Shown here: in pieces, positions 1-19,096 of the stretch | How the letters are laid out: every line of letters begins with the position of its first letter | Position numbering within the stretch: the first letter of the stretch is position 1 | Assembly: GCA_963819545.1 (NCBI GenBank) | Contig: CAWFWJ010000005.1 | Coordinates: 133,905 to 197,904, forward strand | From: an uncultured Gammaproteobacteria bacterium | GTDB taxonomy: Bacteria; Pseudomonadota; Gammaproteobacteria; Steroidobacterales; Steroidobacteraceae | Direction of reading: 5' to 3' | DNA length: 64,000 nucleotides | Translations under genes and position numbers: made by a program | Notes under the pieces: model-generated | What the model was told of the DNA's origin: nothing | Databases searched by the model: none | What the model saw: only the letters and a program-made list of their open reading frames with translations

Positions 1-265
1 GCAGGCGGCATAAACCGGGATGCCGAGAGGGCCGAGGCTACGAATTGTCCCGAGCGCCGTGACGCTGCCGCCAAGTACGAGGACCGGCACCGCCGCCAGC
101 GGGCGTACCTCAGGGCTGGCCTTGTTGGCTTTTTGCATGGCGCGGTTTTGTAATACTACCGGATGAATGCCCTGCCTGCATGCTCCCAATTGGAGAATTT
201 GACGCGGTACACACAGCCGGCCGGACGGGCTTTACTATCATTGAATTCCCAGTGTGGGAGCACCG

Positions 266-1165
266 ATGCCGGTCTGGCCGAATCTTTTCATTGCGGGCGC
301 GCCCCGGTGCGGCACGTCTTCGCTCCACGCCTGGCTTCAGACGATTCCCGGGATCCACATGTCCCGAATCAAGGAGCCGAATTACTTTTCGCGCACGGTC
401 ATCGCGGACGATCATCCGATGGTGCAGCCGATCCGCGATGAAAAGCAGTACCTAAAGCTCTTCGCCGGAGCAGGGGACGCGAAAATCGTCGGGGAGGCCA
501 GTCCGAATTACCTCGAGGATCCAGAGGCGCCGATCCTTATCGATCGAACGGCACCGGGCGCCAAGGTTCTTGTGAGCCTGCGCGACCCTGTCGAACGGCT
601 CTTCTCCCACTACCTGATGATGCTGAACAACCGCCCATCGATGGGAAGTTTCATGGCGGAAATCGAGCGCGGCCTGTCGCTCCAGAGCAATAGAAGCCAG
701 GCCGTACTTGCTGCCGACACCGGTCTTTATTCCCGGCAGGTCGAGCGTTACCGGGGGATTTTCGGTGACCGGTTCAAAGTCCTGATCTTTGAGGAACTGA
801 TGGCCGATATTCCGGGAACGCTCCGGCAGGTTCTCGCATTTCTGGCCATCGACCATGACGTCAGCAACTTCTCAGATCAGCCCCAGCGGCAGTACAGCGA
901 GGTGCGCGGGTCGTTCGTGCGCTACCTGTTCGGGAATCGCATGATTTCCAGGGCCTCGGAGACGTTAATTCCATTCCGGATCAGAAAGCTGGTCCGCAAT
1001 ACATTTCTGATCAAGGACGCACCAAAGCCTCAAATGGGTCCCGAGGCGCGGGAGTTCCTCATCCGATACTATCGCGACGACGTTCTCCGCCTGGAGGATC
1101 TCCTGGGTCGCCGGCTTCCATGGCGAAACTTCGGTGACGAACCGCAGTCGCGAATTACCGGCTGA
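266..1165 (+). CDS. PAPS-type sulfotransferase family protein (ST-1)
   Basis: Intact ORF (track 254..1165). ATG 266 lies 5 nt after GGAG. Motifs GAPRCGTSS (5'-PSB loop) and SLRDPVERLFS (3'-PB-like). Confidence 0.8.
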   Translation: MPVWPNLFIAGAPRCGTSSLHAWLQTIPGIHMSRIKEPNYFSRTVIADDHPMVQPIRDEKQYLKLFAGAGDAKIVGEASPNYLEDPEAPILIDRTAPGAKVLVSLRDPVERLFSHYLMMLNNRPSMGSFMAEIERGLSLQSNRSQAVLAADTGLYSRQVERYRGIFGDRFKVLIFEELMADIPGTLRQVLAFLAIDHDVSNFSDQPQRQYSEVRGSFVRYLFGNRMISRASETLIPFRIRKLVRNTFLIKDAPKPQMGPEAREFLIRYYRDDVLRLEDLLGRRLPWRNFGDEPQSRITG

Positions 1166-1167
1166 TC

Positions 1168-4005
1168 GTGGCATCGGTGGCAGACCCCATGGCTCAAGTC
1201 GATTCGGGCTACCTGCTTCACGGGTGTTTCGAAGAACAGGCGGTCAGGACACCCGACGCGATCGCTCTGTACTGGAAGGAGCAGTCGGCCACATTCAGGG
1301 CGCTCAATGCCGCGTCCGACCGGGTGGCCGCTGCGCTGCGCTCCAGGGGGATCCGTGACGGAGCTACGGTTGCGCTTCACATGGAGCGCTCGATCCGGTT
1401 TGTCGTGGCGATGCTCGGAATCCTGAAATCGAACTCTGCCGTCGTGCCGCTACCGCCCTCCTATCCCGAGGGCCGGCTCCGGGAGATTCTGTCGTTCTCC
1501 GCCTTCGATGCAGTGATCGACGACGAGGACACGCGCCTCGGCGCGGGCCTCGACGACGGCGTCATCCATTTCGCGGAGCTCGAGAAGTTCCAGGGCGATC
1601 CGGGCGAGCGCGCCGCCGGCGGCTCGCATGAGCCCGCGTTCGTACTCTGTTCGTCGGGTTCCACCGGCCAACCGAAGATGATCGTGCGAAGTCACCGGTC
1701 GTTCTTCCATCGACTCAACTGGACGTGGGAGAACTGGCCCTACGGCGACGGCGAAGTCTGCTGCCAGAAGTCGCACATGACGACGACTCACTCGATCTAC
1801 GAGTTATTCGAGCCCTTGCTGCGCGGTGTTCCTGTTCACATCATCCCGGACGAGGGCGTGCGCAACCTCGAACAGTTCTGGGACACGATCCGGGCAAAGC
1901 GAATCTCGCGCTTGCTGATTGTGCCTTCAGTCCTGCAAGCCTCGCTCGACATGCCCGGTTTCGCCGCTCCGCCGGTCAAGGTCGTCGTTCTTATGGGTGA
2001 ATACCTGCACCCGAAGCTTGCAGGCAGGGCGCTCGGGGCCTTCCCGCCAGAAACGAAGATCTTTTCCATCTACGGCAGTACGGAGGCGAGCTCGACGCTC
2101 GTGTGCGACCTGCGCGAGTCCTGGCGGGACGACGAGGAACTTCCACTCGGCAAGTCAATTTCGCCGGAGGTCAGGGCCCTGGTGCTCGACCCGGCGTTGA
2201 CGGAGGTGGCCGCGGGCGAGAGCGGGCTGCTCCATATGGCGGGGCCGGCGCTCTTCACGGAGTACTTCAGGAACCCAGCGCTGACCTCGTCCGTATTCGT
2301 TCGTGCGTCGGGCGACGGAACGCTACTCTTCAACACGCACGACCAGGTGAGGCGGCTCGCGGACGGAAGCCTTCAGTTCGTCGGGCGTGTCGATCACACG
2401 GTCAAAGTCAGGGGATTTCGCGTCGATCTTGGCGAGGTGGAAAGGGCGCTCCAGCTTCATCCGGATCTCAAGCAGAGTGTCGTGATGCTCGGCGGACCTG
2501 CCGCGGAAAATCCGCCGCTTGTCGCGTTCTATACGCCAGCCATGGTCGATCACGCGGCCCTGTTGAACACCCTCAGGGACCGGCTGCCCGCTTACATGGT
2601 GCCGTCCGTCCTGGTGGGTCTCGAGTCGTTTCCGCTCTCGGCGAGCGGAAAGGTCGATCGCAGGACGCTACTTGAAGAATGGTCGAAGCGCCCTGCGGTT
2701 CCGGCAGCGGACGAGCTGCTTTCGGACACGGAGTCGCGCGTCGTCGAAGTGTGGCGGAAAGTGCTCAAGCATCGGGCGATCCAGCGCGAAAGCAATTTCT
2801 TCGAGGTCGGCGGCACGTCATTGTCTGTGTTTACCGCAGTTCATCAACTGAGGGCTGCCTTTGAACTGGATCGATCCCAGCTTTCCGACCACTCGGTGTA
2901 TAAGTTCCCGACTGTCCGGGAGCTGGCCACTTACATCGATGAGCTTCAGCGCGGCGGCGCGCCAAAGCTGCCCACGAGATCCGTAGTCGCCGTCACGCTC
3001 CGCAGCGGCGAGCCCGCGCGCCCACCGCTGTTCGTGATCGCGTCGTCAGGCGGAACGCTTGGGGCGTACGAGAAGCTCTCGAAGACCCTGACGACGACCC
3101 GTGAGATCGTCGGTATCCGCGATCCGTTCGTCTGGGGCGAGCGGGACCCGACGTCGGGATTCCAGGACTGGATCACGACCTATGTTGCGGCCATCCAGGA
3201 GCGGCAGCCTGCCGGTCCTTACTACGTTTGCGCGTTCTCCTCTGCGGGGGCGTTCGGCTACGAGATCGCGCAGCGGTTGCGCCAGGATGGCCAGGAGGTG
3301 GCGCAGCTCCTGCTAATCGATCCGATCGGGATTGCGGGCGAGGCCGACGAGGACTTTGGTTCTCGGGTTTTCCAGGCGATGTTCCGAGGACGGCGCAGCA
3401 AACTTGTCGTTCGCCTGGCGGGCTGGTGGCGCCTGATCACGGGCGCCGGCCGTCGGAGCAGCGCTGCGGTAGGAGAGAACGATTACGCGATGTCGCGGCA
3501 GGAGTTCGATCGCCGTGTCGCGGACGTACGTCGGGACCAGAAGATCATGAAGGATCTGTCGTCGCTATTCGAGCTGAATACAGCGTTGCCATTCACGATG
3601 TCCGACGACGACTTTTCCGGCAAGGATCCGGACGCGTACCTGGCGACTTTCCTGTCGCGCGTCAAAACGGTTACGCCGGACGTCGATGCGGAGACAGTCG
3701 AAAGGATCCTGGTCCAGTACTACTGCCTGCAGTTGCCGGCGACGCATTTCTACCGGCTCAAGAACTATGACGGCCGGGTCGAGATCTTCGAGCCCGAAGG
3801 CCCCCAGGTAGGGTTGCTCGCAGCCTACTTCAGACCGTATGTCAGAAACCTTCGCATTCGCGTCCTGAAGGCCGGCGCCCCGTCTGCCAGAACGCAGTTC
3901 GTCTGCGCGAATCTCAGTCGGAGCCTCCGGACGCATTACCGCAGCATGCGGGACGACACGTTCGTCGCCAACCTGTGCGCAGAGCTGGAGACCTTGCTGA
4001 GCTAG
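1168..4005 (+). CDS. NRPS-like adenylation / carrier protein / thioesterase tridomain enzyme
   Basis: Intact 945-aa ORF. A-domain cores SSGSTGQPKM, SIYGSTEAS, VKVRGFRVDLGEVE, SASGKVDR. Carrier motif FFEVGGTSLSVF. Alpha/beta-hydrolase nucleophile elbow FSSAGAFG with a long C-terminal region. GTG 1168 or ATG 1189 as start. Confidence 0.85.
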   Translation: MASVADPMAQVDSGYLLHGCFEEQAVRTPDAIALYWKEQSATFRALNAASDRVAAALRSRGIRDGATVALHMERSIRFVVAMLGILKSNSAVVPLPPSYPEGRLREILSFSAFDAVIDDEDTRLGAGLDDGVIHFAELEKFQGDPGERAAGGSHEPAFVLCSSGSTGQPKMIVRSHRSFFHRLNWTWENWPYGDGEVCCQKSHMTTTHSIYELFEPLLRGVPVHIIPDEGVRNLEQFWDTIRAKRISRLLIVPSVLQASLDMPGFAAPPVKVVVLMGEYLHPKLAGRALGAFPPETKIFSIYGSTEASSTLVCDLRESWRDDEELPLGKSISPEVRALVLDPALTEVAAGESGLLHMAGPALFTEYFRNPALTSSVFVRASGDGTLLFNTHDQVRRLADGSLQFVGRVDHTVKVRGFRVDLGEVERALQLHPDLKQSVVMLGGPAAENPPLVAFYTPAMVDHAALLNTLRDRLPAYMVPSVLVGLESFPLSASGKVDRRTLLEEWSKRPAVPAADELLSDTESRVVEVWRKVLKHRAIQRESNFFEVGGTSLSVFTAVHQLRAAFELDRSQLSDHSVYKFPTVRELATYIDELQRGGAPKLPTRSVVAVTLRSGEPARPPLFVIASSGGTLGAYEKLSKTLTTTREIVGIRDPFVWGERDPTSGFQDWITTYVAAIQERQPAGPYYVCAFSSAGAFGYEIAQRLRQDGQEVAQLLLIDPIGIAGEADEDFGSRVFQAMFRGRRSKLVVRLAGWWRLITGAGRRSSAAVGENDYAMSRQEFDRRVADVRRDQKIMKDLSSLFELNTALPFTMSDDDFSGKDPDAYLATFLSRVKTVTPDVDAETVERILVQYYCLQLPATHFYRLKNYDGRVEIFEPEGPQVGLLAAYFRPYVRNLRIRVLKAGAPSARTQFVCANLSRSLRTHYRSMRDDTFVANLCAELETLLS

Positions 4006-4009
4006 GGAT

Positions 4010-4763
4010 TCAGACCCACTTCCAGCATTGCACGGTGCCGACGGGTTCTCTGGTCGCAAGTGCCGCAACGAATTCCTTGGTGGGTGCCGCAATCGGTATC
4101 ACGCGGTTGCCGGCCTCAACACTGACATGCACGGAACCGATGCCCAATCCATGCAGTTTCACCAGTGCTTCCTGCCGAACCCAGTGCTCCAGAAAACGGA
4201 GTTCACGCAAGGTCTCGGAAAGTGAAGCAAGCTCGTCGTACTCTTCGGGCGTCGAGCATGCGCCTGGAAAGCTGCAGTGCATCGGGGATGCTGCGGATTC
4301 GCTCGACGTCGACTCCGACTTCCCCATCGAATCGCACTGCAATGAGTGCGAGTGCATCTGAAGCCGAGGCGTTGAACCGAAAGCGATCCATTCCCATCGC
4401 AGGCGAAAGTGAAGGTTTACCGAAGGCAGAGTAAGTAAATTGCAGCGATTCCGGTGCACGGTCCGCATAGCGGCCGAGAATCTGCCGGAGCATACCGCGC
4501 GCGGCGACGAATCTGGCGCGATCCTGCGCAAATCGGAATCGGTCAGCGCGCGCGACTTCATCCTCGGCGAGCAGGCGTTCCAGTTCGGCGAGATGGGGAG
4601 GGGTCACATCCACGTCGAATGCCCATACGTGGGTTTCGCCGCCACTCAAGGCGGGCCACGAAGATGGAACGCTCCAGGTGTGGCTGCTCAGCGTGCCGCT
4701 GCGGTCCGCGATGGCCGCGTATTGCCGAAGTGGGCGATCTGTTCCGCGCGCAACTGATCGCAC
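4010..4763 (-). pseudogene. Sfp-type 4'-phosphopantetheinyl transferase, one frameshift near 4255-4262
   Basis: N-terminal part in frame 4203..4763 (HVWAFDV, ARADRFRF, FGKPSL, GVDVERI). C-terminal part in frame 4010..4561 (STPEEYDELASL, WVRQEALVKLHGLG). Start uncertain because it overlaps the upstream gene end. Confidence 0.8.
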
Positions 4764-6017
4764 ACGCGACCCTTCGGGAGGACGACGTCCGAATAGCTGA
4801 GCGGCTGGTCCTTGGGAACGTCGCGCACCAGCTTGCAGTCGACCGACAACGACATCGGCAGGTAGCTGTGGTCCAAGCTGTCTCGTAGGTGTCGATCAGG
4901 CCGTAGCTGGTGAAGCCGCCCATGCCGTCGAGCATCTCGCCGGCCTTGCAGGTCGCGCTTGGCGTAGGCGACGGCCTCGCAGACCGGGGCGCCGAGCGGC
5001 GTCAGCGTCGGATCATGGTGAACAGCACGGCGCGCGCGACCGAGTGCGGCAGCTGCAGGTGCGGCAGGTGGTACGGCGTGTAGAACATGTAGAGCGGCCC
5101 GTCGCCGAACTTGAAGTACGCCATGTACTGGCGCTTGACCGGGTGGTCGTTGTAACCCATGACGAAGGCGCCCGTGTGGGGCTCGGCGCCGAGCACGAAA
5201 TCGACCAGGCCGCCGTCCTTGAAGTCGTCGCGGCGTGAAGTGGTTGCAGCAGGTCCTTCACGTGGGCGCACTCATGGCCGTACATGCCGAGCATGCCCGG
5301 CCGGAAGCCCGTGGCATTGCCGATGATCGCGGACTCGAGGGCGAGCTTGGAGCCGTCGGCGAAGGAGGCCACCATGGCGGGCTTCTGCTTGTGCTTCTCC
5401 GCGAATTCGCGCTGCGTGTCCGGGTTGCGGTAGCGGTTCGAGGAAGCCCTTGATCTGCCCCATCAGCACCGGCTTGTAGCCGATGCTGTCGACGAAGCGG
5501 TAGCAGGTTCATCGCCACGCCGGGCTCGTCGCCGTCCGTGTAGGTGTAGACGACGCCGTTGCGGTCGGCGTAGCACCTTCAGGATCGGGCCCGACGGCGG
5601 CGTCGGTCTCGGCGTTCATCAGGACGACGTGCTTGCCGTTGCGGATCGCCTCGAGCGCAGACCCGCGCGCCGGACTCGACGTCGCCCGTCGTCTCGATGA
5701 TGGCCTCGACGCCGCCGGCGCGGCAGAGCGACCGTCGGATCGTCGGTGACGGCGTAGACGCCCGCGGCCATCGCGGCCTCGAGCTCGCGCGGGCGAGCGC
5801 GACCGATCGGAACTCCGTCGCGCCGGCCTCGCGGTAGGCGCGCTCGGCCTGGTCTACGCGTCGCGGTTGGCGATCGCCACGAGCCGCAGTCCCGGGATAC
5901 GCGGTCAGGATCTGCGAGCGCGATGCCGCGGCCCATGTAGCCGGCGCCGACCATGCCGACGCGGACGGGATCGCCCGCGGCGAGCCGCTTCTGCAGCGCG
6001 GTGTCGACGATGATCAT
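4688..6017 (-). pseudogene. NAD(P)-binding oxidoreductase with C-terminal SAF domain (COG4091-like), multiple frameshifts
   Basis: N-terminus MIIVDTALQKRLAAGDPVRVGMVGAGYMGRGIA (5619..6017). Mid fragment GAFVMGYNDHPVKRQYMAYFKFGDGPLYMFYTPYHLPHLQLP (5002..5271). SAF-like end KLVRDVPKDQPLSYSDVVLP (4688..4876). Confidence 0.6.
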
Positions 6018-6053
6018 TGGGATCTCCTCGCGTCGCCTCGCGGCGGGCGACGC

Positions 6054-6606
6054 TCAGCATGAAGTCGGGCCAGTTCCGGTCCTGGTCCGAGACGACGCGG
6101 ACCGGGGCCGGCCAGGTGATGCGCGAACGCCGGGTCGTCGAAGCGGACGCCGCGCGCGGCGTCCGGCGCGTAGCAGGCCGAAGTGAAGTAGGTCAGCTCG
6201 GTGTCGTCCTTCAAGCGTCAGGTAGCCGTGGGCGCAGCCCTCGGGAGCGTAGAGCATGCGGCCGTTGTCCGGCGTCAGCTCCACGCCATCCAGCGCCGGA
6301 AGGTCGGGCGAGTCGGGCCGCAGGTCGACGACGACGTCGTAGACGGCGCCGCGCGTGCAGCGGACGAGCTTGACCTCGGCGTGCGGCGGCTCCTGGTAGT
6401 GCATGCCGCGAAGCGTCCGCGCCTGCGGGCTGCACGCCGGTATTGACCTGCGCGATGCGCGTCGACGAGGCCGTGCTCGGCGAACTCGTGCTCGCACCAG
6501 GTGCGCGCGAAAAAGCCGCGCTCGTCGCGGCCGGGCTCGAGATCGATCGACGAACGCACCCGCCACTGGTGCCCTCGGTGAAGATACCTTCGGACGTCTT
6601 CCAGAC
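6054..6606 (-). pseudogene. dTDP/CDP-sugar 3,5-epimerase (RmlC-type cupin), frameshifted
   Basis: Fragments in three frames: DERGFFARTWCEHEFAEHGL, GMHYQEPPHAEVKLVRCTRGAVYDVVVDLRPDSP, GRMLYAPEGCAHGYLTL, ELTYFTSACYAPDAARGVRFDDPAF. Confidence 0.7.
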
Positions 6607-7378
6607 CATCCAGGGACAATCGCCGCGCGCCTCCATGCGATCGAAGCGTGATCTTGTCCTTGAAGGTGTCCATCGCCTGCCAGAACCCGTCGTGGCGATA
6701 GCGCCGAGCAGGCTTCTTCTCGATCAGCCGCTGGAACGGCTGCTCGACCAGTTCCTCGCCCTCGCTGGATGTAGTCGAAGATCTCGCGCCGCAGCGACGA
6801 AGAAGCCGCCGTTGATGCGGAGCGCGTCGTCCGTGCATCGGGCCGATGCGACGTCGACGAGGCCGTCGGCGTCGGCGCTGCACCACGTGGAAGCTCTGCG
6901 ACGGGCGCACCGCGGCGAAGCTCGCGACCACGTTCTTGCGCTTGAATCGTCGCACATGCGGTCGAGCGGCAGGTCGCGACAGGCCGTCGGAGTAGTTCGC
7001 GAGGAACATGTCCTCGTCTCTCGACGTACTTGCGCACGCGCAGCAGGCGCTGGCCGATGTTCGAGTGCAGCCCGGTGTCGACGAACGTGATGCGCCAGTC
7101 CTCGATGTCGCGGCTGTGCAGCTCGACCTTGCTGGCCGCCGTCGGACAGCGTGAAGTCGTTCGACATGCACTCCTTGTAGTGCAGGAAGTACTCGCGGAT
7201 CAGGTCGCCGCGGTAGCCGAGGCAGAGCACGAAGTCCTTGTGGCCGAAGTGCGCGTAGTAGCGCATCAGGTGCCAGAGGATCGGCCGCGTAGCCGACGTT
7301 CACCAGCGGCTTCGGGATCGTGTCCGAGTGCTCGCGCAGCCGCGTGCCGAGCCCGCCGCAGAACAGCACGACTTTCAT
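6590..7378 (-). pseudogene. rfbF: glucose-1-phosphate cytidylyltransferase, frameshifted
   Basis: MKVVLFCGGLGTRLREHSDTIPKPLV at ATG 7378 (GGGAG upstream). HFGHKDFVLCLGYRGDLIREYFLHYKECMSNDFTL (6724..7266 frame). GFWQAMDTFKDKITL. 3' end approximate. Confidence 0.75.
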
Positions 7379-7401
7379 GGACTCCCGTCTCCTCCTGCGC
7401 C

Positions 7402-8762
7402 CTAGCGGCCGATGCCTTCGTACGTCGCGAACGCACTCGGGACGAACATGCGCCGCCCGTCGACGACGAGCGGCGTGCGGCCCAGTGCGCCGCAGCAGCG
7501 TCGGGCAGCCCTGCGAACTCCGCCCAGCGCGTGACGAGCACCACGACGTCGGCCTCGCCTCAACGCGTCCTCGAGCGTGGCTGCCGCGAGCCGGACGCCG
7601 CGCAGGTCCGGGTGGTACTCCGGCCGCGCGATCGGGTCGTAGGCCGAGACCTGGCGCCGGCGTCGCGGAGGAGCCGGAGGATCGGGAACGCCGGCGACTC
7701 GCGCAGTCGTCGGTATCCGGCTTGAACGCGAGACCGAGCACCGTGACCGCACGCCGCGCAGGTCCGGGATAGTGCTTGCGCGACCAGCGCGCAGCAGCTT
7801 CGTCCGGCTGCGTCGCGTTGATCTCGAGCACGCTGCGCGAGCAGCGGCATGTCGAGCCCGAGATCGCGCCCTTGCGCCACGAGCGCCGTGACGTCCTTCG
7901 GCAGGCAGCTGCCGCCGAAGCCGCAGCCGGCCTCGAGGAAGCTCGCGATGCCGGCCGTCACCGGCTCGGCCACCGGGCGGCGCGCGGTGAAGTAGGCCGA
8001 CGCGTGCACGCCGCGCATCACGTCGGCCACGTCGACGTCGCCGACGCGCGGAGCAGAGCCGGCCGATCTCGTTGAGAACGAGATCATCGTGGCGAGCACG
8101 CGAATTCGAGGCGTACTTGATCATCTCCGCCGTGCGTGTTGTTGGTGCGGATGCGCGGGCGCGGCCGTCGAACGCCGCGTAGAGCGTCTGCAAGTGCGTC
8201 CTGCGTGCGCGTCGTCGATGCCGCCGAGCACGATGCGGTCCGGCGCGCATGAAGTCCGCGACCGCCTGGCCTTCGGTCAGGAACTCGGGATTCATGCCGA
8301 GCCCGAAGTCCGCGACCCGCGACGCTTGCCGGAGGCCTGCCTCGAGCGCACGCGCGGACCACGCCGTCGGTGGTGCCCGGAATCACGGTGCTCTTCACGA
8401 CGACCGCGTGATAGCCTCGGCTTCGTCGCGCAGCGCCGCGCCGATCTCGCTGCGCGGCGCGCTCGACGTAGCTGCAGATCGATGCTTGCCCGTCGGCCGC
8501 CGGCGTGCCCGACCGCGATGAACGTGACGTCCGAGTCTGCGACCGCGCGCGGCAGGTCGGTCGTGGCGCGCAGCCGCTTGCCGACGTGCGCTTGAGCAGC
8601 TCCGGCAAGCCCGGCCTCGTGGATCGGGGCGCGGCCCGCGTTGATCGCTGTCGACCTTGGCCGGATCGAGGTCGACGCAGGTCGACGTCGTGGCCGCGCT
8701 CCGCCAGGCAGGCGCCCGGTGACGAGGCCGACATAGCCGGTGCCGACGATCGAGATCCGCAT
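7402..8762 (-). pseudogene. ugd: UDP-glucose 6-dehydrogenase family protein, multiple frameshifts
   Basis: MRISIVGTGYVGLVTG at 8762. ACLAERGHDV, VTFIAVG, MNPEFLTEGQAVADF, GGSCLPKDV, and end FVPSAFATYEGIGR, distributed over three frames. Confidence 0.75.
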
Positions 8763-8763
8763 C

Positions 8764-9899
8764 AGGCCGCTGCCGCCGACTGGATTGTGGTGGTACCAGA
8801 CCAGCGAGCGGTAGACGCCTTCTTCGACGAGCACCTGCGGCTCGTAGCCGAGCTGCTCGCGCGCCTTGTCGATGACCGGGCAGCGGCGGTTCGGGTTGTC
8901 GACCAGGTAGTCCGCTTCCTGCGGCCTTGCCGAGCACGACCTTGCCCTGGTAGCCGAACAGCTCGCTGCGCGGTCTCGATGACGATGCCGCGCGAGCTCG
9001 GCCATCGAGATCTCCGGCCGTTCGATGCCGACGTTGTAGGGCTCGCCGATTGCCGCCGCGCACGAGAACCTTGTAGTAGCCGGTGATCGCGTCCGTGGCG
9101 TAGCAGAAGGTGCGCTTGGGCGAGCCGTCGGAGAACATGACGATGTCGCGCCCGGCGAGCACGTCCGGGCGAAGTCCGGGATGCACGCGGCCGTCGGTGA
9201 TCTTGAGTCCCGGGCCGTAGTTGTTGAACGGCCGCGCGATCTTGACCGGCATGCCGTGCGTGCTGCGCGAAGGTCGACGCAGAGCGTCTCGCCGAAGCGC
9301 TTGGACTCGTCGTAGCAGGCGCGCGGGCCGGTGCACGACACGTTGCCGCGATAGGTCTCCGGGCGTCGGGATCGCGTCCGCGAGCGGGTCGCCGTAGATC
9401 TCGCTCGACGAATAGAACAGGAAGCCTCGCACGGGCCGGCCGGCCTCGCGCTCCGCGACGGCGTAGTCGAGCAGGTTGCGCAGGCCGTTGATGTTGGCGT
9501 CGATGCACTTGAGCGGCTGCGCGCGGTAGTAGATCGGCGAGGCGATGCCGGCGGCGTGGATGATGTAGTCGAAGTGGCCCATGTCGTGCGGCAGCGGCTG
9601 GATCATGTCCTGCCGCACGAGGGTCGAGGTCGGGCTCGCCGCGCAGCGCCTCGAGCCAGGCCGGCACGCCGCGCATGTAGTTGTCGTAGACCGTGACGTC
9701 GATCGCGCCGCGCCGCTGCGCGGGTGCGGTTCCAGTGCAGGGCCGCCTGCACAGGTAGTAGCCGAGGAAGCCGCCGCCGCCGGTGATCAGCAGCGCGGCC
9801 GCCGGCCATTCTCGGAGAACTCGGCGTCGAGGTCGGTGCAGATCGTCTCGAGGTCGTCCGCGAGCAGCTGCTGCCAGCGGCATCAGCGGGCTGTCCCAT
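8764..9899 (-). pseudogene. NAD-dependent epimerase/dehydratase, UDP-glucuronate decarboxylase (UXS)-like, frameshifted
   Basis: LLITGGGGFLGYYL, DYIIHAAGIASPIYYRAQPLKCIDANINGLRNLLDYA, FLFYSSSEIYGDP, CYDESKRFGETLC (YxxxK), ARPFNNYGPGLKITDGRV. AGGAG lies 7 nt before ATG 9899. Confidence 0.7.
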
Positions 9900-9918
9900 T
9901 GCATGACTCCTCGGCGCG

Positions 9919-10577
9919 TTAAAGCATCGAGCTTGCGCGCATGGAACGCCTCGGCGAGGCCCGAGGGCGCGTTGCACTCGATGCCGCGCAGGCGCAGGTG
10001 CGCCTCGGAACAGATCGCGGCTGAACCAGGCGCGCGTCGCTGGGACGGGAAGCACTCCATCAGCATGTCGAGCTTCGCGCCACATCGTCGTCGCGCGAGC
10101 GGCACGTAGAGATTCGGGTGGCCGAGATCGCCTTCGTATTTCGGGATCTCGTATTCGAGCGACGAGGTGATCGCGAAACGTGTTCCAGGTGAGTTCGGCG
10201 ACCAGCGGTGGTCCTGGTGCCGGTCCTCGAGCCGGTGCGTGAGGATCAGGTCCGGCTGGACGCGCTGCCTTGAGCGACTCGAAGTGGTCCTTGATCTCGG
10301 CGCCGTCGAAGGGGAGGTAGCTCATCCGGAAGTTCAGCACCTCGACCTCTGCGCCGCGCCGCGCCGGTGGATCGCGGCCGCCGCCTTGCGCGTCTCCTGC
10401 TCGCGCGCCGTCCTCGCCCGTGAACACGACCCACTCGAACGCGCTGCTCGGAATGGCGCTCCTGAAGCTCATCAGCGTGCCGCCGCAGCCGATCTCGATG
10501 TCATCGCAGTGCGCGCCGAGGCACAGCACTTTGAGCGGCTCACCCGCGGGCAAACTCAACGACAACATGCGATCCAT
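9919..10577 (-). pseudogene. PIG-L (LmbE) family deacetylase, frameshifted
   Basis: MDRMLSLSLPAGEPLKVLCLGAHCDDIEIGCGGTLM in frame 9603..10946. Later segments shift frame. TAA near 9919. Confidence 0.7.
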
Positions 10578-10654
10578 CCCCAATCGATTGAATTTGCTGG
10601 CGGTAAGTGTCGCCGGAATGACCCTCCGCGACAACATGGCGGAGCCAACGCCGT

Positions 10655-11713
10655 TCACAGATTCGCTTGCGGCAGCGCGCCGAAAGCCTGCCCTTGAGTT
10701 GGCGATCGAGCCATTCGCCATGCCGTGCGAGGAATGGCGCCAGGATCGTCCCAGGCGAAATAGGCGAAGCTCCGGCTGCCGAGAACGGATCCCAGCCAAC
10801 CGTCGTGCGTAATCGACCCGCGCTCGCGTAGCTCGCGGAACGCGCGGAGATCGGGGCCCAGGAAGCATCCAGCGGACTCGCTCTGGCCGTCCCGGGGGCC
10901 GGGAAGGCCTGTCCGACTGCATCGTGGTAGGCGAGCAGGGGCACATCCAGTCCGGATCGCGTGATCAATTCCTGGCCCGAGAACCGTGCGCACATTGATT
11001 TCCATGAGAACGAATCGGCCGTCGCGGGGTCGCGCCGGAATTCGACCGTGGCGGCCCGCGATGGCCGGTGATCGCGAGCAGTCGGAGCCCGAACTCGGCA
11101 CCAGCGGTTCGTCCGCGATGTCCTGAGGCTGCCGTCGCCCGACGCCGAGCGGATACTGGCGGATCTTGCGCTTGGTTCGCCAGCCGACGGGCCTGACCCC
11201 GCCGGTCGATGTAGGTCGAGAGCCGAATGCATGTCGCTGTCGTCCCGGGAATGATTTCGATCGGGATCGCGGTGAGTGCAGCGACATGAAGTCCTCGAGA
11301 ATCGCGCCGAAGCTCTCGATGTCCTGCGCCTCGAGTTTGCCGCGACGCACGCGCCGCCATTCGTGGCCCATCGCGGGCTTGACGTAGCAGGGTGCGCCGA
11401 CGATTTCGATGGCCGCTTCGATGTCGCCCGGTTCCCGACGACATGGAATCGCGGATGACGGAATTCCGATGCTGCCGCGCCGTCTGCGTAAAGGCTTGCG
11501 CCTTGTCGACGATGCACTCCAGCACGCGAATAGCTTGGCGATACGAAGCAGAATTTTTCCGCAAGCCGCTCCTGATGCTTCGCAACCAGCAGCGCGTCCT
11601 CGATCACCGGTCGCAAACAGAAACGGCTTCGGGCCGGGCGCGGCCAGGCGAGCGCCAGCAAAGTGGTGATCGCCCGTCGTCGAGTTCATCGAGATGCACG
11701 AATCGCGAGACAT
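10655..11713 (-). pseudogene. ATP-grasp domain protein (carboxylate-amine ligase-like), frameshifted
   Basis: ATG 11713 after GGAG. RPVIEDALLVAKHQERLAEKFCF, GAPCYVKPAMGHEW, DGRFVLMEINVR spread over frames 10540..11661 and 10655..11755. 3' end uncertain. Confidence 0.6.
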
Positions 11714-11892
11714 AGCGGCTCCGGCGACGGCCGAGTCCTCCGGTGGGGCGGCCACCGTGACATTCAGGCCGGCGCGGCCAAGTGATCGCGCGGCGCTCAG
11801 CGAGTTCGGGACTCGCCCTGAGAATCAGTGCGTCCACGCATGACCTTGCGCCGGCGGCAGCCCGGGCTCGGAATCGGCGCGGGTCGTCGGGC

Positions 11893-12183
11893 TCAGTCGA
11901 CTGTGCGGCGGCCGCGCGACTTTCGGCGCTGGCCGCCGGCATACCAGGCGGCCCGTTCCTGCCGTACTTGAAGCGGCGGTCTTGTTCGTCCTCGCGCCGG
12001 TCGACGTACTTCTTGAAGCGGCAGCGGCACTTTGTCGGCATCGTGCAATTGGGCATCGGCAGCGGCGGGGCGTGGTCGGCGAGGATCCGCACGCCTTCCA
12101 GCGCGCCGACGGCGCCGCAGCACTTGTGCCGGCGTCGCAATCGTGACGGCCGGGAATTTCTTAGCTTGCGGCCATGGCCATAA
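11893..12183 (-). pseudogene. small Cys-rich protein, paralogue of 47287..47598 (frame-disrupted, ends uncertain)
   Basis: Frame 11604..12425 reads HKCCGAVGALEGVRILADHAPPLPMPNCTMPTKCRCRFKKYVDRR. A neighbouring frame reads KKFPAVTIATPA. ATGGCCATGGCC at 12183 follows directly after a terminator. Confidence 0.4.
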
Positions 12184-12887: not shown

Positions 12888-13566
12888 ATGCAGTCGAAAG
12901 TTCGCGTTGGTCTGGTCATGGGTGCGGCACTGCTCCTGAGCGCCTGCTTCGATCGGATGACGATGACGACAGCGAGAACGGCGATGGCAACGGCGACCCG
13001 CCGGCCGCTCAGAACAGGCGCCGACGATCGCGGGTTCGCCGCCGCCGAACATCCTGGAAGGCGAACTCTACGAATTCATCCCGACCGCGAGCGAGCCGGA
13101 CGGCGATACGCTCGAATTCACGATCGCGCGCAAGCCCGCCTGGGCGAGCTTTGACCGCGCGACGGGCCGCCTCTGGGGTACGCCGGCCGCGGAAGATGTC
13201 GGCAATTTCACGAACATCGGAATCTCGGTTTCGGACGGCAAGGCAACGGCCGCACTCGCGCAATTTCGACATCACCGTCAATCAGATTGCGCTCGGTTCA
13301 GCGACGCTGTCCTGGAAGCCGCCGACCGAAAATGCGGACGGGTCCGCGCTGACCAACCTCGCGGGCTACCGCATCTACTACGGCCGCAATCGCGACAATC
13401 TCACCGAGTCAGTCGATCGTCCTCAACAATCCGGGCCTGACCCGCTACGTGGTCGAGAACCTGTCGCCCGCGAAGTGGTACTTCTCGATGACATCAGTCA
13501 ATTCGAATGGCGTCGAAAGCCGGCGCTCGCCGACTGTCAGCAAGACAGTTACCTGATCGAAGCGGC
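12888..13566 (+). pseudogene. lipoprotein with Ig-like (He_PIG/cadherin-like) plus fibronectin-III-like domain, paralogue 1, frameshifted
   Basis: MQSKVRVGLVMGAALLLSAC lipobox. Reconstructed LEGELYEFIPTASEPDGDTLEFTIARKPAWASFDRATGRLWGTP, SATLSWKPPTENADGSALTNLAGYRIYYG, and end SVNSNGVESRRSPTVSKTVT with TGA 13564-13566. Confidence 0.65.
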
Positions 13567-13692
13567 CGCGCCTAGCGGCTTCCAGAAAAAATTGCGCGAC
13601 AGGTTGTCGCAGCATCGCTACACGTCGGCCATAACTGTCGTCATTCGAAGACGTGTGACAACTGAGTAATTTCTTGCAGATCGATACGGTGC

Positions 13693-13718
13693 GCCCCTCA
13701 ATAGATTGTACGAGGGGC
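13693..13718 (+). promoter_or_regulatory. Shine-Dalgarno-sequestering hairpin, leader of paralogue 2
   Basis: GCCCCTC (13693-13699) pairs with GAGGGGC (13712-13718). ATG 13723 lies 4 nt downstream. Confidence 0.35.
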
Positions 13719-13722
13719 TCGT

Positions 13723-14376
13723 ATGCGGATTTTACCGCTGGTACTCACGCTGTGCGTCGCTTTTCTGTTCACGGGCTGCCTGGGTTCGGGCGGAGGCAGC
13801 AGCCAAAATGGAGCCCGCGTTCGCCCGCAGGAAGGCAATCAGCCGCCGACCATTACGGGATCGCCAGCGCCCAGCATCCTCGAGGGTGAGACCTATGAAT
13901 TCACGCCGGCGGCCACAGATCCCGACGGCGACACACTCAAATTCCAGATTGCCGGAAAACCGGACTGGGCGAACTTCGAGCCGGCCACCGGCCGGCTCTG
14001 GGGGACGCCGGACGCAGGTGACGCAGGAAACTTTGCGAATATCCGGATTTCGGTGGCAGATGGAAAGGTCTCGGTCGCGCTGAATGCTTTCGGCATAGCG
14101 GTCAACACGGTGGCTTCGGGCTCGGCAACCCTTTCCTGGAATCCACCGACCCAAAACGCCGATGGGTCGAACCTGACCAATCTGGTGGGTTACCGGATCT
14201 ACTACGGCCGCAGCGCCACAGCGCTCACTCAGTCGATCGTCATAAACAATCCCGGCTTGACCCGGTATGTGGTTGAGAACCTGTCGCCCGCGATGTGGCA
14301 CTTCACGATGACTTCGGTGAACGCGAAGGGCACGGAAAGCAACAGGTCGCCGAAGGTCAGCAAGACGATCAGCTGA
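13723..14376 (+). CDS. lipoprotein with Ig-like plus fibronectin-III-like domain, paralogue 2
   Basis: Intact 217-aa ORF. Lipobox LFTGC. ILEGETYEFTPAATDPDGDTLKFQIAGKPDWANFEPATGRLWGTP. SATLSWNPPTQNADGSNLTNLVGYRIYYG. Confidence 0.8.
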   Translation: MRILPLVLTLCVAFLFTGCLGSGGGSSQNGARVRPQEGNQPPTITGSPAPSILEGETYEFTPAATDPDGDTLKFQIAGKPDWANFEPATGRLWGTPDAGDAGNFANIRISVADGKVSVALNAFGIAVNTVASGSATLSWNPPTQNADGSNLTNLVGYRIYYGRSATALTQSIVINNPGLTRYVVENLSPAMWHFTMTSVNAKGTESNRSPKVSKTIS

Positions 14377-14443
14377 GTCCGCTCCGACATTGACGCCTCT
14401 TGTCGCCCGCGCGACCATCGAGCGGGCGACACGGAGGTGGGTC

Positions 14444-14702
14444 ATGTCAGATCTGGAAGGGCATTTCGAAGCGGCGCAGGCGGCGGCCAAGAGACTGACG
14501 ACAAGCCCGACAACGACACGCTTCTCGAGCTGTATTCGTATTACAAGCAGGCGACGGAGGGCGACGCCAGCGGCGCGCGACCCGGCGCCTTCGACTTCGT
14601 GGCCCGAGCCAAACACGACGCCTGGGCGGCCCGCAAGGGCATGAGAAGGACGTGGCCATGCGCGGATACATCAAGCTCGTGGAGCACCTCCAGTCAATTT
14701 GA
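14444..14702 (+). pseudogene. acyl-CoA-binding protein (ACBP), two frameshifts
   Basis: GGAGG lies 6 nt before ATG 14444. Reconstructed MSDLEGHFEAAQAAAKRLT / [48 protein letters not shown] / [18 protein letters not shown]. This matches the classic ACBP signature (YKQAT-GD, PG--DF, AK-DAW). Confidence 0.7.
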
Positions 14703-14780
14703 AGTATTCGCCAATCGGCGACAACGTCGTCGAACACCGACAACGGCGCCTAGAAAGTATTCGCCGACCCGATAGCTTGC

Positions 14781-14803
14781 GCCCTCTTCATGAAAAGAGG
14801 GGC
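14781..14803 (+). promoter_or_regulatory. Shine-Dalgarno-sequestering hairpin, leader of paralogue 3
   Basis: GCCCTCTT (14781-14788) pairs with AAGAGGGGC (14795-14803). ATG 14808 lies 4 nt downstream. About 45 nt of the leader is conserved with 12845-12887. Confidence 0.35.
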
Positions 14804-14807
14804 TGGC

Positions 14808-15137
14808 ATGAAAGCGAAACATTGGTCGGCGATTGCCATTGGGATGGCAGTCACGATGACCGGCATACCAGCCTGGGCTGGGTCCGCGACCCTTTCCTGG
14901 TACCCCCCGACCGAGCTCGTCGACGGCACGGCGCTGACGAATCTGGCGGGCTACCGCATCTATTACGGTAAGAGCGCGACGGCGCTGAACCAGTCAATTG
15001 TGATAAATAATTCGGGCCTCACCCGCTATTTAGTCGAGAATCTCTCGCGTGCCAAGTGGTATTTCGCGATGACTGCCGTGAACTCCCAGGGAACGGAAAG
15101 CGCGCGGTCGACGACGGTCAGCAAAAGGATCTCCTAG
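14808..15137 (+). CDS. secreted fibronectin-III-like domain protein, paralogue 3 (no Ig-like domain)
   Basis: Intact ORF. Signal peptide MKAKHWSAIAIGMAVTMTGIPAWA. SATLSWYPPTELVDGTALTNLAGYRIYYG. ATG 14808 preferred over 14790 by analogy with paralogue 1. Confidence 0.7.
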   Translation: MKAKHWSAIAIGMAVTMTGIPAWAGSATLSWYPPTELVDGTALTNLAGYRIYYGKSATALNQSIVINNSGLTRYLVENLSRAKWYFAMTAVNSQGTESARSTTVSKRIS

Positions 15138-18170: not shown

Positions 18171-18184
18171 GCAAGGGAAATCGG

Positions 18185-19096
18185 GTGAAGAACGTGCAGC
18201 AAAATGAATCAGGCCGCGTGCGGGCGATCATACTGACGACGCAGCGGAGCGGCTCGACGTTCCTGGTCGAATGCCTGCGCTCCCATCCGGAAATCGAGTG
18301 CTCCGGCGAGATACTGAATGGCCAGCCCGACCATGCCGTGCCGCCGTTCCGCGGGCCGTTCAAGCAGGTCATGAAAGCCTTGCGAATCGCCCGGACGGGT
18401 GCCTGGATGCCGGGCCGCTGGATGGACGCCTTCTATGGGCGCGGTCGCGCGAAGGTCCGTTGCTTCAAGGCCATGTACAACCAGCTGTCGCGTCCATTTG
18501 CTCTTCGCTACCTTGTCGAGAATGAGGATGTGCGGGTCATTCACCTGCGCCGGCACAACCTGCTGAAGGTCCATGTCTCGACGCTGCTGATGAACAAGAG
18601 GGAGAAGATCCAGGCCACGGCGCCCACCGAGGCCGTGTGGATTCACGTGGACCCGGCCAAGGCGATCGCGAACATGCGCAAGGCCCGCGAGTACTACGAA
18701 TCCTTCGACAGGGCTTTCGAAAAGCATCCGCGACTTCAGGTCTCGTACGAGAGCCTGTTCGACGGCGCATTTCTTCAGGCGGATACCGCCCGCCGCATCT
18801 GCGATTTCCTGGACGTCGCGCAGTTCCGGATGCAGTCGAAGCTCACGAAGCTCAATCCTGAGTCCTTGCGGGACATGGTGACCAACTACGATGAGCTGGC
18901 TGACGCGATATCCACGACCGAATTTGCCGACATGCTCGCAATGAGCAGGGCGCCCACTCAGGGCTTCTGGGACCTCCGGACCTCGCCGACTCCGGGCGCA
19001 GGTGAAAAGACCGTCTGTTTGATCCGCTCCGCGGCGCCGACAATCCCAGGAGCCACGCTGCCGATCAGGTCAACTGCCATACGGGCGGCGTTGTAA
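18185..19096 (+). CDS. Stf0-like sulfotransferase (ST-2), in frame with the flippase 3' end
   Basis: Possible GTG 18185 after AAGGGA. ILTTQRSGSTFLVECLRSHPEIECSGEIL and HLRRHNLLKVHVS. The last ~45 codons overlap the convergent GT2 and are probably not genuine. Confidence 0.65.
   Translation: MKNVQQNESGRVRAIILTTQRSGSTFLVECLRSHPEIECSGEILNGQPDHAVPPFRGPFKQVMKALRIARTGAWMPGRWMDAFYGRGRAKVRCFKAMYNQLSRPFALRYLVENEDVRVIHLRRHNLLKVHVSTLLMNKREKIQATAPTEAVWIHVDPAKAIANMRKAREYYESFDRAFEKHPRLQVSYESLFDGAFLQADTARRICDFLDVAQFRMQSKLTKLNPESLRDMVTNYDELADAISTTEFADMLAMSRAPTQGFWDLRTSPTPGAGEKTVCLIRSAAPTIPGATLPIRSTAIRAAL

Follow-up and report, generated by a model that had tools for sequence, protein, structure and literature searches.

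Unusual acyl substituents decorate bacterial surface polysaccharides, and the route of their attachment is known in few cases (for example, Dlt, AlmEFG, and simple O/N-acetylation). DltABCD carries out the D-alanylation of teichoic acids and AlmEFG places glycine on Vibrio lipid A, both of which show that surface polymers can be aminoacylated by way of a carrier; in V. cholerae O1, RfbK/L provide an ACP and an AMP-ligase for the tetronate N-acyl group. Stand-alone A-T-TE proteins are known as the aryl-pyruvate furanone/quinone synthetases TdiA, MicA, RalA, and AlfA of fungi and bacteria, and the mycosporine NRPS-like enzyme Ava_3855/MysE works with an ATP-grasp. Pks13-TE is a type-I thioesterase (TE) that off-loads onto trehalose. 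Full-text literature searches returned nothing relevant on an NRPS-like enzyme combined with a thioesterase, EPS, and a sulfotransferase, or combined with ATP-grasp, thiamine, and ALS.

We analyzed a 64,000-nucleotide stretch of DNA (the window) from an uncultured gammaproteobacterium, near the left edge of which lies a gene for a real, complete, stand-alone NRPS-like enzyme with adenylation (A), carrier (PCP), and TE domains (Table 1). Pfam placed AMP-binding at aa 21 to 367, AMP-binding_C at 423 to 495, PP-binding at 524 to 590, and Thioesterase at 620 to 719, with the TE fold reaching residue 945, which bears out the 945-aa A-PCP-TE protein of the initial annotation. The corresponding database protein (P0001) begins at the alternative start and has 938 aa. 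As also claimed earlier, there is no condensation (C) domain: the Pfam scan found no PF00668 in the 945-aa protein, and there was no credible HHxxxDG ORF anywhere in the window and no PF00668 in the annotated neighbors of 6 related loci. A neighboring NRPS occurred in 1 of 45 distinct related loci (L044 only), and we set aside a partner C domain, treating this as an isolated case. With no C domain in cis and no credible one in the window, the protein did not classify as a canonical NRPS elongation or termination module. Based on its adenylation core motifs, carrier Ser, and Ser-Asp-His triad, which are all present and kept across 120 homologues, the enzyme is predicted to be catalytically competent.

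Table 1. Positions of the A-PCP-TE gene, its domains, and neighboring features in the window
Feature	Position	Strand	Basis and details
ATPgrasp_Ter-type ligase gene, first ~46 codons	1-138	-	Truncated by window edge; tblastn with L004 and L005 proteins
Glycan-type sulfotransferase, 303 aa	254-1165	+	Pfam Sulfotransfer_3 and Sulfotransfer_1; PDB sequence matches
A-PCP-TE NRPS-like gene	1168-4005	+	945 aa from GTG 1168; alternative start ATG 1189 (938 aa)
Adenylation domain	1228-2652	+	N-terminal core aa 21-367, C-terminal subdomain aa 423-495; PF00501, PF13193
A4 motif MTTTHSIYELF	1777-1809	+	Alignment to LgrA FDGS and FDIS
Carrier (PCP) domain	2737-2937	+	PF00550; phosphopantetheine Ser551 (945-aa numbering) in FFEVGGTSL
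Type-I thioesterase domain	3025-4002	+	PF00975; ~130-residue helical lid
Sfp-type PPTase	4010-4763	-	Converges on A-PCP-TE, 4 nt between stop codons; PF22624 and PF01648
Nucleotide-sugar block	4709-11837	-	SAF/DRL oxidoreductase, RmlC-like epimerase, glucose-1-P cytidylyltransferase-like, NDP-sugar dehydrogenase, 4,6-dehydratase/epimerase, PIG-L deacetylase, second ATP-grasp
Second ATP-grasp gene	10658-11837	-	Within nucleotide-sugar block
ACBP gene	14464-14699		Present in window
AsnB-like gene	28248-30125		Present in window

The A domain is an ANL-superfamily NRPS-type adenylation domain, based on a PF00501 score of 202.7 bits (cutoff, 29.9; E 1e-59) together with its core motifs; PF13193 scored 23.1 bits, slightly below the cutoff of 24.5. 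Invariant among the 120 homologues were A3 (SSGSTGxPK), A5 (YG-S-TE), A7 (T-x-D), A8 (GRxDxxVKxRGFR), and the A10 GK Lys, with the proline of the usual A5 motif (YGPTE) absent from all 120 and replaced by Ser in 119 and Thr in 1. The initial annotation had read THSIYELF in A4 as lacking the Asp that binds the alpha-amino group, and had named a normal Asp235 in a careful alignment as grounds against that reading. Alignment to both LgrA A domains placed Thr (the third Thr of the motif), not Asp, at position 235, followed by His236 and with Tyr at 239, and these three residues were kept in 120/120 homologues, so the reading was correct. The A7 core is FNTHDQ (G to H), as had also been read, but the His has no special meaning, since the position varies among H, R, Q, and N across the family, and we dropped it as a clue to the substrate. 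The pocket (T-H-Y-S-V-M-I-S-S/T-K) was invariant among the 120 homologues, and neither it nor Thr/His at 235/236 matches any specificity code known to us.

By sequence, the A domain is closest to NRPS A domains that activate amino acids and to DltA, yet it stays below the model cutoffs of both classes. It scored 269.0 bits against TIGR01733 (amino-acid adenylation domain; trusted cutoff, 317.4), and the DltA models gave 185.6 against 559.85 (TIGR01734) and 187.6 against 476 (NF003417). FAAL/FACL models scored far under the NRPS A-domain models, making a fatty acid unlikely. Asp235 is reported to be missing from A domains that use hydroxy or keto acids (PMC11253843; PMC13643306), and a review of A domains ties loss of the A5 proline to alpha-keto-acid recognition, the proline being replaced in the keto-acid domain of StsA (PMC11253843). 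Of the described signs of keto-acid use, the replaced A5 proline is present here; at 235, where a hydrophobic residue is described (PMC11253843; PMC13643306), the protein has the polar Thr in place of Asp, followed by an invariant His; and Pfam found no downstream KR domain in the protein. An A-KR-PCP-TE arrangement occurs only in P0192, a very distant TE relative. Together, the A4 and A5 changes favor a small acid of the keto or hydroxy type over a canonical alpha-amino acid. Given the loss of Asp235 and the A5 proline, a non-alpha-amino carboxylic acid is probably the better guess, which upholds the carboxylic or hydroxy acid of the initial annotation while leaving its fatty acid unlikely.

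The carrier domain (PF00550, 37.2 bits; cutoff, 20.8) has the modified Ser of GG-x-S (here GG-T-S) in 120/120 homologues. The TE is of type I (PF00975, 41.2 bits; cutoff, 26.4) with a triad of Ser691 (A-F-S-S-A), Asp718 (LLIDP), and His923 (T-H-Y-R-S-M; 945-aa numbering), of which the A-x-S-x-A Ser and the His were conserved in 120/120 homologues and the Asp in 119/120. An AF2 model (pLDDT, 88.5) has a type-I TE fold and matched NRPS/PKS TEs in Foldseek with a probability of 1.00. The lid appears unusually large and family specific, its half of the domain being confined essentially to the ~940-aa architecture. Mycobacterial Pks13-TE, which shares this fold, was among the best structural matches (E ~3e-12, 15 to 17% identity), but ordinary cyclizing and hydrolyzing TEs matched equally well, so the match is uninformative on the acceptor; the fold search does not distinguish TEs that transfer from those that hydrolyze or cyclize.

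Sulfotransferase and glycosyltransferase genes abound in the window locus, which also encodes Wzy, a flippase, and a priming transferase. Directly upstream of the A-PCP-TE gene, as the initial annotation had it, is a sulfotransferase gene that stops 2 nt before the GTG; its product is 74% identical to its L004 orthologue, and its PDB sequence matches are 3rnl and heparan sulfate 3-O- and N-sulfotransferases. In CurM/OLS logic, a carrier-bound hydroxyacyl group is sulfated and then undergoes TE-driven decarboxylative elimination; we rejected this for the present pair because the sulfotransferase is glycan-like (heparan 3-OST/NDST) and adjoins the family gene in only 7 of 46 loci. The PPTase contains GVDVE (GxDxE) and WVRQEALVK (WxxKEAxxK), classifies as Sfp type, and scores below the HetI equivalog cutoff (129 against 370). 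It converges on the A-PCP-TE gene as described earlier, in a frame that is broken here and intact in the Logan contig L001. The nucleotide-sugar genes beside it and the ACBP, ATP-grasp, and AsnB-like genes listed earlier were likewise all found. The nucleotide-sugar block, named from NCBIfam assignments of the L005 orthologues, has the same order in L005 and L004 by tblastn synteny. At the left edge of the window, aa 1 to 48 of the L004/L005 ATP-grasp proteins match the start of the window at 63 to 67% identity, and a ThDP enzyme gene follows beyond the ATP-grasp gene in related loci (gene order of L001, L004, and L005). These partners fall just past the left window edge, where the initial annotation could not see them.

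Members of the A-PCP-TE family (~940 aa) come from six or more phyla, are frequent in soil metagenomes, and carry generic names only. Across 45 distinct loci (46 scanned, including the near-duplicate L001), the steadiest partners were an ALS-like ThDP enzyme, an ATP-grasp, and a PPTase, the last adjoining the family gene in 17. In the 26 loci flanked by 5 kb or more on both sides, the ThDP enzyme was a neighbor in 13, the PPTase in 10, the ATP-grasp in 9, and sugar or sulfotransferase genes in 9, and 6 had none of the partner genes. A tight ATP-grasp/ThDP/A-PCP-TE operon occurs in Gemmatimonadales, and minimal ATP-grasp/ThDP/A-PCP-TE or A-PCP-TE/ThDP units also occur without glycan genes around them, some amid housekeeping genes. 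The glycan link is not a family-wide property, because of these units and the six loci without partners. Glycan-modifying genes (polysaccharide deacetylase, glycosyltransferases, sulfotransferase, PIG-L, and RmlC-like) do lie next to the family gene in Gamma- and Betaproteobacteria, Gemmatimonadota, and Actinomycetota, and in the window lineage the order of glycan sulfotransferase, A-PCP-TE gene, and nucleotide-sugar genes is conserved (synteny with L004 and L005).

Acetolactate synthases, oxalyl-CoA decarboxylase, glyoxylate carboligase, and further enzymes were similarly good matches to the ThDP partner, and a YerE-like branched-sugar role was considered for it; sequence searches of the ATP-grasp partner against PDB gave no match. 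Some lineages add a Glu/Leu/Phe/Val-dehydrogenase-like gene and a "PaaK-like" neighbor, the latter a provisional label given by eye from sequence (one scanned member had no Pfam match), and c-di-GMP signaling genes flank two distant loci. TIGR03098 (exosortase-A-associated acyl-CoA ligase) was the best match of the A domain outside NRPS and Dlt models, at 140.9 against a cutoff of 592.35. We discarded a PEP-CTERM/exosortase link on account of this low score, the presence of PEP-CTERM proteins beside the family gene in only 3 loci, and the absence of a PEP-CTERM motif from the window by regex search.

Our best explanation, held tentatively at a little short of an even chance, is that in this lineage a small acid is loaded and transferred by the TE to a glycan acceptor. 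The A domain would adenylate a small polar non-alpha-amino acid of the alpha-keto or alpha-hydroxy type, possibly an acetolactate-type product of the ThDP enzyme, the most frequent neighbor of the family, and attach it through a thioester to the carrier of the same protein, which the adjacent, dedicated PPTase would serve as part of the module. The lidded TE would take the acyl group on Ser691 and hand it to a nucleophile. Here the module is embedded in a locus for a sulfated polysaccharide, in which genes for TPP, ATP-grasp, sulfotransferase, A-PCP-TE, and PPTase lead into nucleotide-sugar genes. On that ground the acceptor would most likely be a hydroxyl or amine on a sugar, whether in a nucleotide-sugar, a lipid-linked repeat unit, or the polymer, and the partner ATP-grasp may form another amide or ester linkage within this decoration. 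Known keto- and hydroxy-acid domains have a hydrophobic or small residue at 235, where Thr is found here, and the protein has no KR domain, both of which count against this explanation. In addition, the adjacent sulfotransferase and PIG-L could carry out N-deacetylation/N-sulfation, leaving no free amine to acylate. Acylation of EPS is a plausible hypothesis for this lineage. The initial annotation's proposal that the TE acylates an EPS sugar was not supported as stated: what speaks for it is neighborhood only, the steadiest partners are ThDP, ATP-grasp, and PPTase genes, and minimal units are free of glycan genes.

The same partners could instead make up a small-molecule synthetase unrelated to EPS, a strong if less likely alternative in which ThDP enzyme, ATP-grasp, and A-PCP-TE would form a self-contained path to a diffusible metabolite, released by the TE through hydrolysis, cyclization, or dimerizing condensation in the manner of the A-T-TE furanone/quinone synthetases or the mycosporine NRPS-like enzyme, with the EPS position reflecting co-regulation or chance. 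It would account for the minimal operons, the gene standing alone in six well-flanked loci, and ThDP and ATP-grasp genes being commoner neighbors than sugar genes; the c-di-GMP genes and the added dehydrogenase-like and PaaK-like genes also favor it, and a dehydrogenase paired with a ThDP enzyme resembles ScyB/ScyA logic. Such a path fits poorly with the recurrence of glycan-modifying genes across the four groups named above, with the wedged position of the window-lineage gene in a conserved order, and with the lack of any conserved transporter or regulator of the kind usual in metabolite clusters. Aminoacylation in the manner of DltA/AlmE, in which an ordinary, D-, or beta/gamma-amino acid is bound noncanonically and passed by the TE to the polymer, appears quite unlikely. 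The best matches of the A domain agree with it and Asp235 is not strictly required, McyG having Val there (PMC11253843), but Asp235 and the A5 proline are missing from every homologue, the TIGR01733 and DltA trusted cutoffs are not reached, and the annotated loci contain no MBOAT/DltB- or AlmG-like partner.

A decaying locus, with the PPTase and downstream sugar genes as pseudogenes and the A-PCP-TE gene as a not-yet-degraded remnant, is highly improbable. Here the PPTase is split over two frames (N half at 4203 to 4763, PF22624 score of 32.4 with a cutoff of 27; C half at 4010 to 4561, PF01648 score of 25.9 with a cutoff of 25) by a +1 frameshift, one extra base at 4246, and every gene of the nucleotide-sugar block has several frameshifts in this assembly; if genuine, they would leave this organism without a working pathway. 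Neither the A-PCP-TE ORF nor the sulfotransferase ORF is broken, though, and L001, a near-identical, independent short-read contig with 5 differences over window positions 1 to 4750, has an intact 212-aa PPTase gene, which makes an error of assembly likely. The 4.7- to 12-kb stretch resembles poor long-read consensus in its odd GC, its scarcity of G/C homopolymers, and its 13% divergence from L001.

A broader version of the preferred explanation, which we consider unlikely, is that a multiphylum set of ATP-grasp, ALS-like ThDP carboligase, and lidded A-PCP-TE builds a branched alpha-hydroxy or alpha-keto acyl group on a carrier and transfers it to sulfated EPS or a precursor. If true, bacterial glycans would be acylated here by an NRPS-logic route that has not been described before. 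The invariant non-amino-acid pocket and the neighbors conserved from Gemmatimonadota to Gammaproteobacteria and Actinomycetota make the family a candidate for a decoration route or for a small metabolite of biofilm loci, and one biochemical assignment would annotate hundreds of genes. The question is experimentally accessible, since a cultured carrier of the family exists (Lentisalinibacter orientalis YNA5901).

Compared with known systems, the protein shares with the A-T-TE synthetases, of which AlfA is named in PMC12105029, the three-domain order without a C domain, the TE as product-forming step, and, with their keto-acid users, an A domain without Asp235. It differs from them in its unrelated pocket, its far larger family-specific TE lid, its conserved ThDP and ATP-grasp partners, and its glycan-locus context here. 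Like MysE, the family is paired with an ATP-grasp ligase; the gene context is nevertheless not of the MysE type, as the annotated loci contain no DDGS/EEVS sugar-phosphate cyclase or O-methyltransferase. With StsA (cereulide synthetase; "KAL" domains) the protein has in common the missing Asp235 and the replaced A5 proline; domains of that type have a hydrophobic residue at 235 and are followed by a KR in multimodular depsipeptide synthetases, whereas the present protein has Thr235, His236, and no KR or C domain. The exosortase-A (PEP-CTERM)-associated genes likewise bring an AMP-forming ligase, a carrier, and alpha/beta-hydrolases into EPS loci, as separate proteins rather than a fusion, and the regex search of the window found no PEP-CTERM motif. 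In DltABCD, AlmEFG, and RfbK/L, as here, an adenylating enzyme and a carrier feed a surface glycan (in our case, putatively), and the genes lie within or next to polysaccharide loci; there, however, the functions are spread over separate proteins that include a membrane acyltransferase (MBOAT or AlmG), whereas the present enzyme carries a fused type-I TE.

The A-PCP-TE gene proved to be a real open reading frame, encoding 945 aa from a GTG start at 1168 or, in the public version of the protein (P0001), 938 aa from an ATG at 1189. A Pfam scan of the intact 945-aa protein recovered adenylation, carrier, and thioesterase (TE) domains and no condensation domain, confirming the architecture proposed in the initial annotation. 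The top NCBIfam matches were NRPS modules; the protein scored 269 against the amino-acid adenylation model, below the trusted cutoff of 317, and fell far below cutoff for the DltA models. Across 120 full-length homologues, each at least 51% identical, all catalytic motifs are conserved, together with the Ser of the carrier and the TE triad (Ser of A-x-S-x-A, Asp of LLIDP, and His of T-H-Y), which argues that the protein is under selection as a working enzyme. Judged from these motifs, a single chain lacking a condensation domain joins a competent adenylation domain, a carrier, and a Ser-Asp-His TE, served by a dedicated Sfp-type phosphopantetheinyl transferase (PPTase).

The gene does lie between a sulfotransferase and a converging PPTase, as originally described, with the stop codons of A-PCP-TE and PPTase 4 nt apart. 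One extra base at 4246 splits the PPTase in the window; it is intact (212 aa) in L001, an independent short-read contig (run ERR11593397) that differs from window positions 1 to 4750 at 5 sites and is otherwise identical. The PPTases of the subclade formed by the window, L004, and L046 read FNASAS/FNASGS rather than the usual FN-x-SHS, and the lysine of W-x-x-K-E-A is Gln (WVRQEA) in the window and L001; PPTases adjoining other family members keep SHS or SRS plus KEA.

The adenylation pocket provides the main clue to the substrate. HMMER alignment to both LgrA adenylation domains (FDGS and FDIS) placed the third Thr of MTTTHSIYELF at the Asp235 position, His at 236, and Tyr at 239, so the earlier reading of an A4 core without the alpha-amino-binding Asp holds. 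These three residues are invariant among the 120 homologues, as are Ser 278, Met 301, and Lys 517 of A10; Val occupies position 299 in 114 and Ile position 322 in 119. With the pocket fixed throughout the family, all members should use the same or a very similar substrate, and its polar mouth (T, H, Y, S, S) and bulky lower part (V, M, I) suggest a small polar acid. In addition, the A5 proline (YGPTE), a feature absent from the initial annotation, is replaced by Ser in 119 of the 120. Hydroxy- and keto-acid adenylation domains lack Asp235 (PMC11253843; likewise PMC13643306), and the keto-acid domain StsA has a substitution at exactly this A5 proline, a residue that alpha-amino-acid domains otherwise keep (PMC11253843). 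Based on the loss of both residues, the substrate is probably a small keto or hydroxy acid rather than a canonical alpha-amino acid, in line with the non-amino-acid substrate first suggested. The His in the A7 core (FNTHDQ), also noted at first, is not diagnostic, because this glycine position, although never Gly in the family, varies (H in 56, R in 22, Q in 17, N in 13, and other residues).

An AlphaFold2 model of the TE (residues 603 to 945, 17 family sequences as input; mean pLDDT, 88.5) has an alpha/beta-hydrolase core and a helical lid of ∼130 residues. Foldseek matched it to type-I TEs of NRPS, PKS, and FAS systems in the PDB (E ∼1e-12), including an epimerizing/cyclizing TE, Pks13-TE, AB3403, FAS-TE, Vlm2-TE, and NocB-TE; TM-scores were ∼0.5 on the query versus 0.6 to 0.7 on the targets, so the core is matched and the lid is not. 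When a TE-domain profile was searched against 1.84 billion representatives, only 56 matched at E <= 1e-30. Full-length matches came almost only from 900- to 990-aa proteins or fragments, while ordinary NRPS/PKS TEs matched only over the first ∼120 profile positions; the lid is therefore a signature of the family. The two exceptions were a stand-alone TE of 351 aa (P0178) and a distant A-KR-PCP-TE protein (P0192) whose N-terminal adenylation domain appears FAAL-like by eye.

A word-indexed search returned more than 120 full-length homologues with only generic names, and a genome scan found the family in Gemmatimonadota, Gammaproteobacteria (Steroidobacteraceae, Rhodanobacteraceae, and the cultured Lentisalinibacter orientalis), Betaproteobacteria, Acidobacteriota, Actinomycetota, Polyangiaceae, and Zixibacteria. 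We clustered ORFs from 46 related loci (45 distinct without the near-duplicate L001) and counted neighbors in the 26 that have 5 kb or more of flanking sequence on each side. In 13 of these, an acetolactate-synthase-like ThDP enzyme is encoded no more than 7 kb away, often abutting the family gene; a PPTase is nearby in 10, an ATPgrasp_Ter-type ligase in 9, and sugar or sulfotransferase genes in 9; 6 have none of these. For the ThDP enzyme, matches of similar strength were obtained to acetolactate synthase, guanidino-oxopentanoate decarboxylase, oxalyl-CoA decarboxylase, and glyoxylate carboligase, and the ATP-grasp ligase has no sequence relative in the PDB. Behind a PAS-GGDEF-EAL gene on one Gemmatimonadales contig, a compact operon carries the ATP-grasp, ThDP enzyme, and A-PCP-TE genes on the same strand, and on one gammaproteobacterial contig the genes for A-PCP-TE and the ThDP enzyme adjoin rimP-nusA-infB. 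Four Steroidobacteraceae/Betaproteobacteria loci (L028, L030, L036, and L042) add two genes after the ThDP enzyme, ∼0 to 4.5 kb downstream of the family gene: one is Glu/Leu/Phe/Val-dehydrogenase-like, and the other, of ∼470 to 505 aa, was provisionally labeled PaaK/CapK-like by eye (no Pfam match for the one member scanned, from L028). The dehydrogenase-plus-ThDP pair resembles the keto-acid/acyloin logic of ScyB/ScyA. Polysaccharide deacetylase, glycosyltransferase, sulfotransferase, PIG-L, and RmlC-like genes recur near the family elsewhere.

Other neighbors are more local. The window encodes a large PAS-GAF-GGDEF-EAL protein whose orthologues lie directly upstream of the Gemmatimonadales operon, and GAF-PAS and response-regulator-EAL genes lie upstream in one gammaproteobacterial locus; such genes may indicate c-di-GMP control. 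Among the 45 distinct loci, a condensation domain occurs near the family gene only in a Rhodanobacteraceae MAG (L044), within an NRPS 3.8 kb downstream. In L. orientalis (L022), the A-PCP-TE/PPTase pair is bordered by genes for two PEP-CTERM proteins that share the same C-terminal sorting signal, together with two VanZ-like genes and an NTP_transf_5 gene.

Coordinates of features in the window and, where a locus is named, in related loci
Feature	Position	Strand	Remark
ATPgrasp_Ter-type ligase	138-1	-	first 46 codons
Sulfotransferase	254-1165	+	303 aa; stop 2 nt before A-PCP-TE start
A-PCP-TE	1168-4005	+	
AMP-binding	aa 21-367	+	Pfam, E 1e-59
AMP-binding_C	aa 423-495	+	Pfam
PP-binding	aa 524-590	+	Pfam
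Thioesterase	from aa 620	+	Pfam
Sfp-type PPTase, two frames	4203-4763 and 4010-4561	-	converges on A-PCP-TE
Sugar-gene block	4.7-12 kb		in order: SAF/DRL oxidoreductase, RmlC-like, glucose-1-P cytidylyltransferase-like, NDP-sugar dehydrogenase, dehydratase/epimerase, PIG-L deacetylase, second ATP-grasp
He_PIG/fn3 genes, three in tandem	12983-15134		signal peptide then Cys
ACBP	14464-14699		frameshift near its end
Sulfotransferase-domain ORFs	17321-19096, 31305-32108, 36418-37176		
PAS-GAF-GGDEF-EAL protein	55756-59229		
c-di-GMP-type genes	L086 4481-7009; L087 4986-9150		
Bimodular NRPS	L044 16630-22779	-	2049 aa; A-T-C-A-T-TE
Genes flanking the A-PCP-TE/PPTase pair	L022 13429-15093		

The placement of the gene at the edge of an EPS locus was correct, since the rest of the locus, to ∼46 kb, encodes Wzy, a flippase, a priming enzyme (Bac_transf), GT2 and GT4 glycosyltransferases, and three further sulfotransferase domains; an AsnB-like enzyme, ACBP, and He_PIG/fn3 lipoproteins are also present. 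By sequence, the adjoining sulfotransferase resembles glycan sulfotransferases (heparan sulfate 3-O- and N-sulfotransferases). The four sulfotransferase-domain ORFs and the PIG-L deacetylase suggest a heavily sulfated, possibly N-sulfated, heparan-like polymer. The lipoprotein-like He_PIG/fn3 genes surround the small ACBP gene, and L004 and L005 share this arrangement, which precedes the priming sugar transferase gene. To the left, the window edge interrupts the ATP-grasp gene and cuts off the true neighbors; in related loci the ThDP enzyme lies beyond it.

The split PPTase and the frameshifting of every gene between 4.7 and 12 kb could be read as decay of the locus in this organism. This block is syntenic with related loci, and each of its genes is matched in two to three reading frames by its L005 orthologue. 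However, L001, near-identical to the window's left end, has an intact PPTase, and the stretch from 4750 to 12000 has a GC content of 0.69 to 0.70 (0.62 in the flanks), few G/C runs of at least 5 (0.14/kb versus 0.5 to 0.8/kb elsewhere), and ∼13% divergence from L001. Given this composition and divergence, the stretch appears to be a low-quality or mosaic long-read consensus and not a run of true pseudogenes, and we regard decay as highly improbable.

We propose that the ThDP enzyme and the ATP-grasp ligase would make the keto or hydroxy acid or take part in its further processing, a part of the scheme we hold more loosely, and that in the window lineage the TE could transfer the acyl group to a sugar residue, either in the sulfated polysaccharide or in a precursor of it. 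EPS-sugar acylation had been suggested at the outset; the position within a sulfated-polysaccharide locus stands, and acyl transfer to a sugar is a tentative reading of that position. The main alternative is a free small molecule as the product of the three-gene module, with the TE working by hydrolysis, cyclization, or dimerization, as known A-T-TE enzymes do; we rate it nearly as likely as sugar acylation. Aminoacylation of the Dlt/AlmE kind is less likely, and indeed improbable, because Asp235 is invariantly lost, as is the A5 proline.

The family occurs widely, is clearly functional, lacks annotation, has a cultured carrier, and offers a testable link to glycan acylation. A literature search found no description of this gene set. 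Compared with known families, A-PCP-TE fell outside the amino-acid adenylation domains, DltA, and the exosortase-associated ligases. Its fit to keto-acid adenylation domains is partial, as it has no KR domain and carries Thr-His at residue 235 rather than a hydrophobic residue. The domain logic is familiar; the unfamiliar parts are the pocket, the lid of the TE, and the conserved partnership with the ThDP enzyme and the ATP-grasp ligase. In its workings A-PCP-TE is akin to known stand-alone NRPS-like A-T-TE enzymes, and it is similar to carrier-dependent systems that decorate surface polymers.
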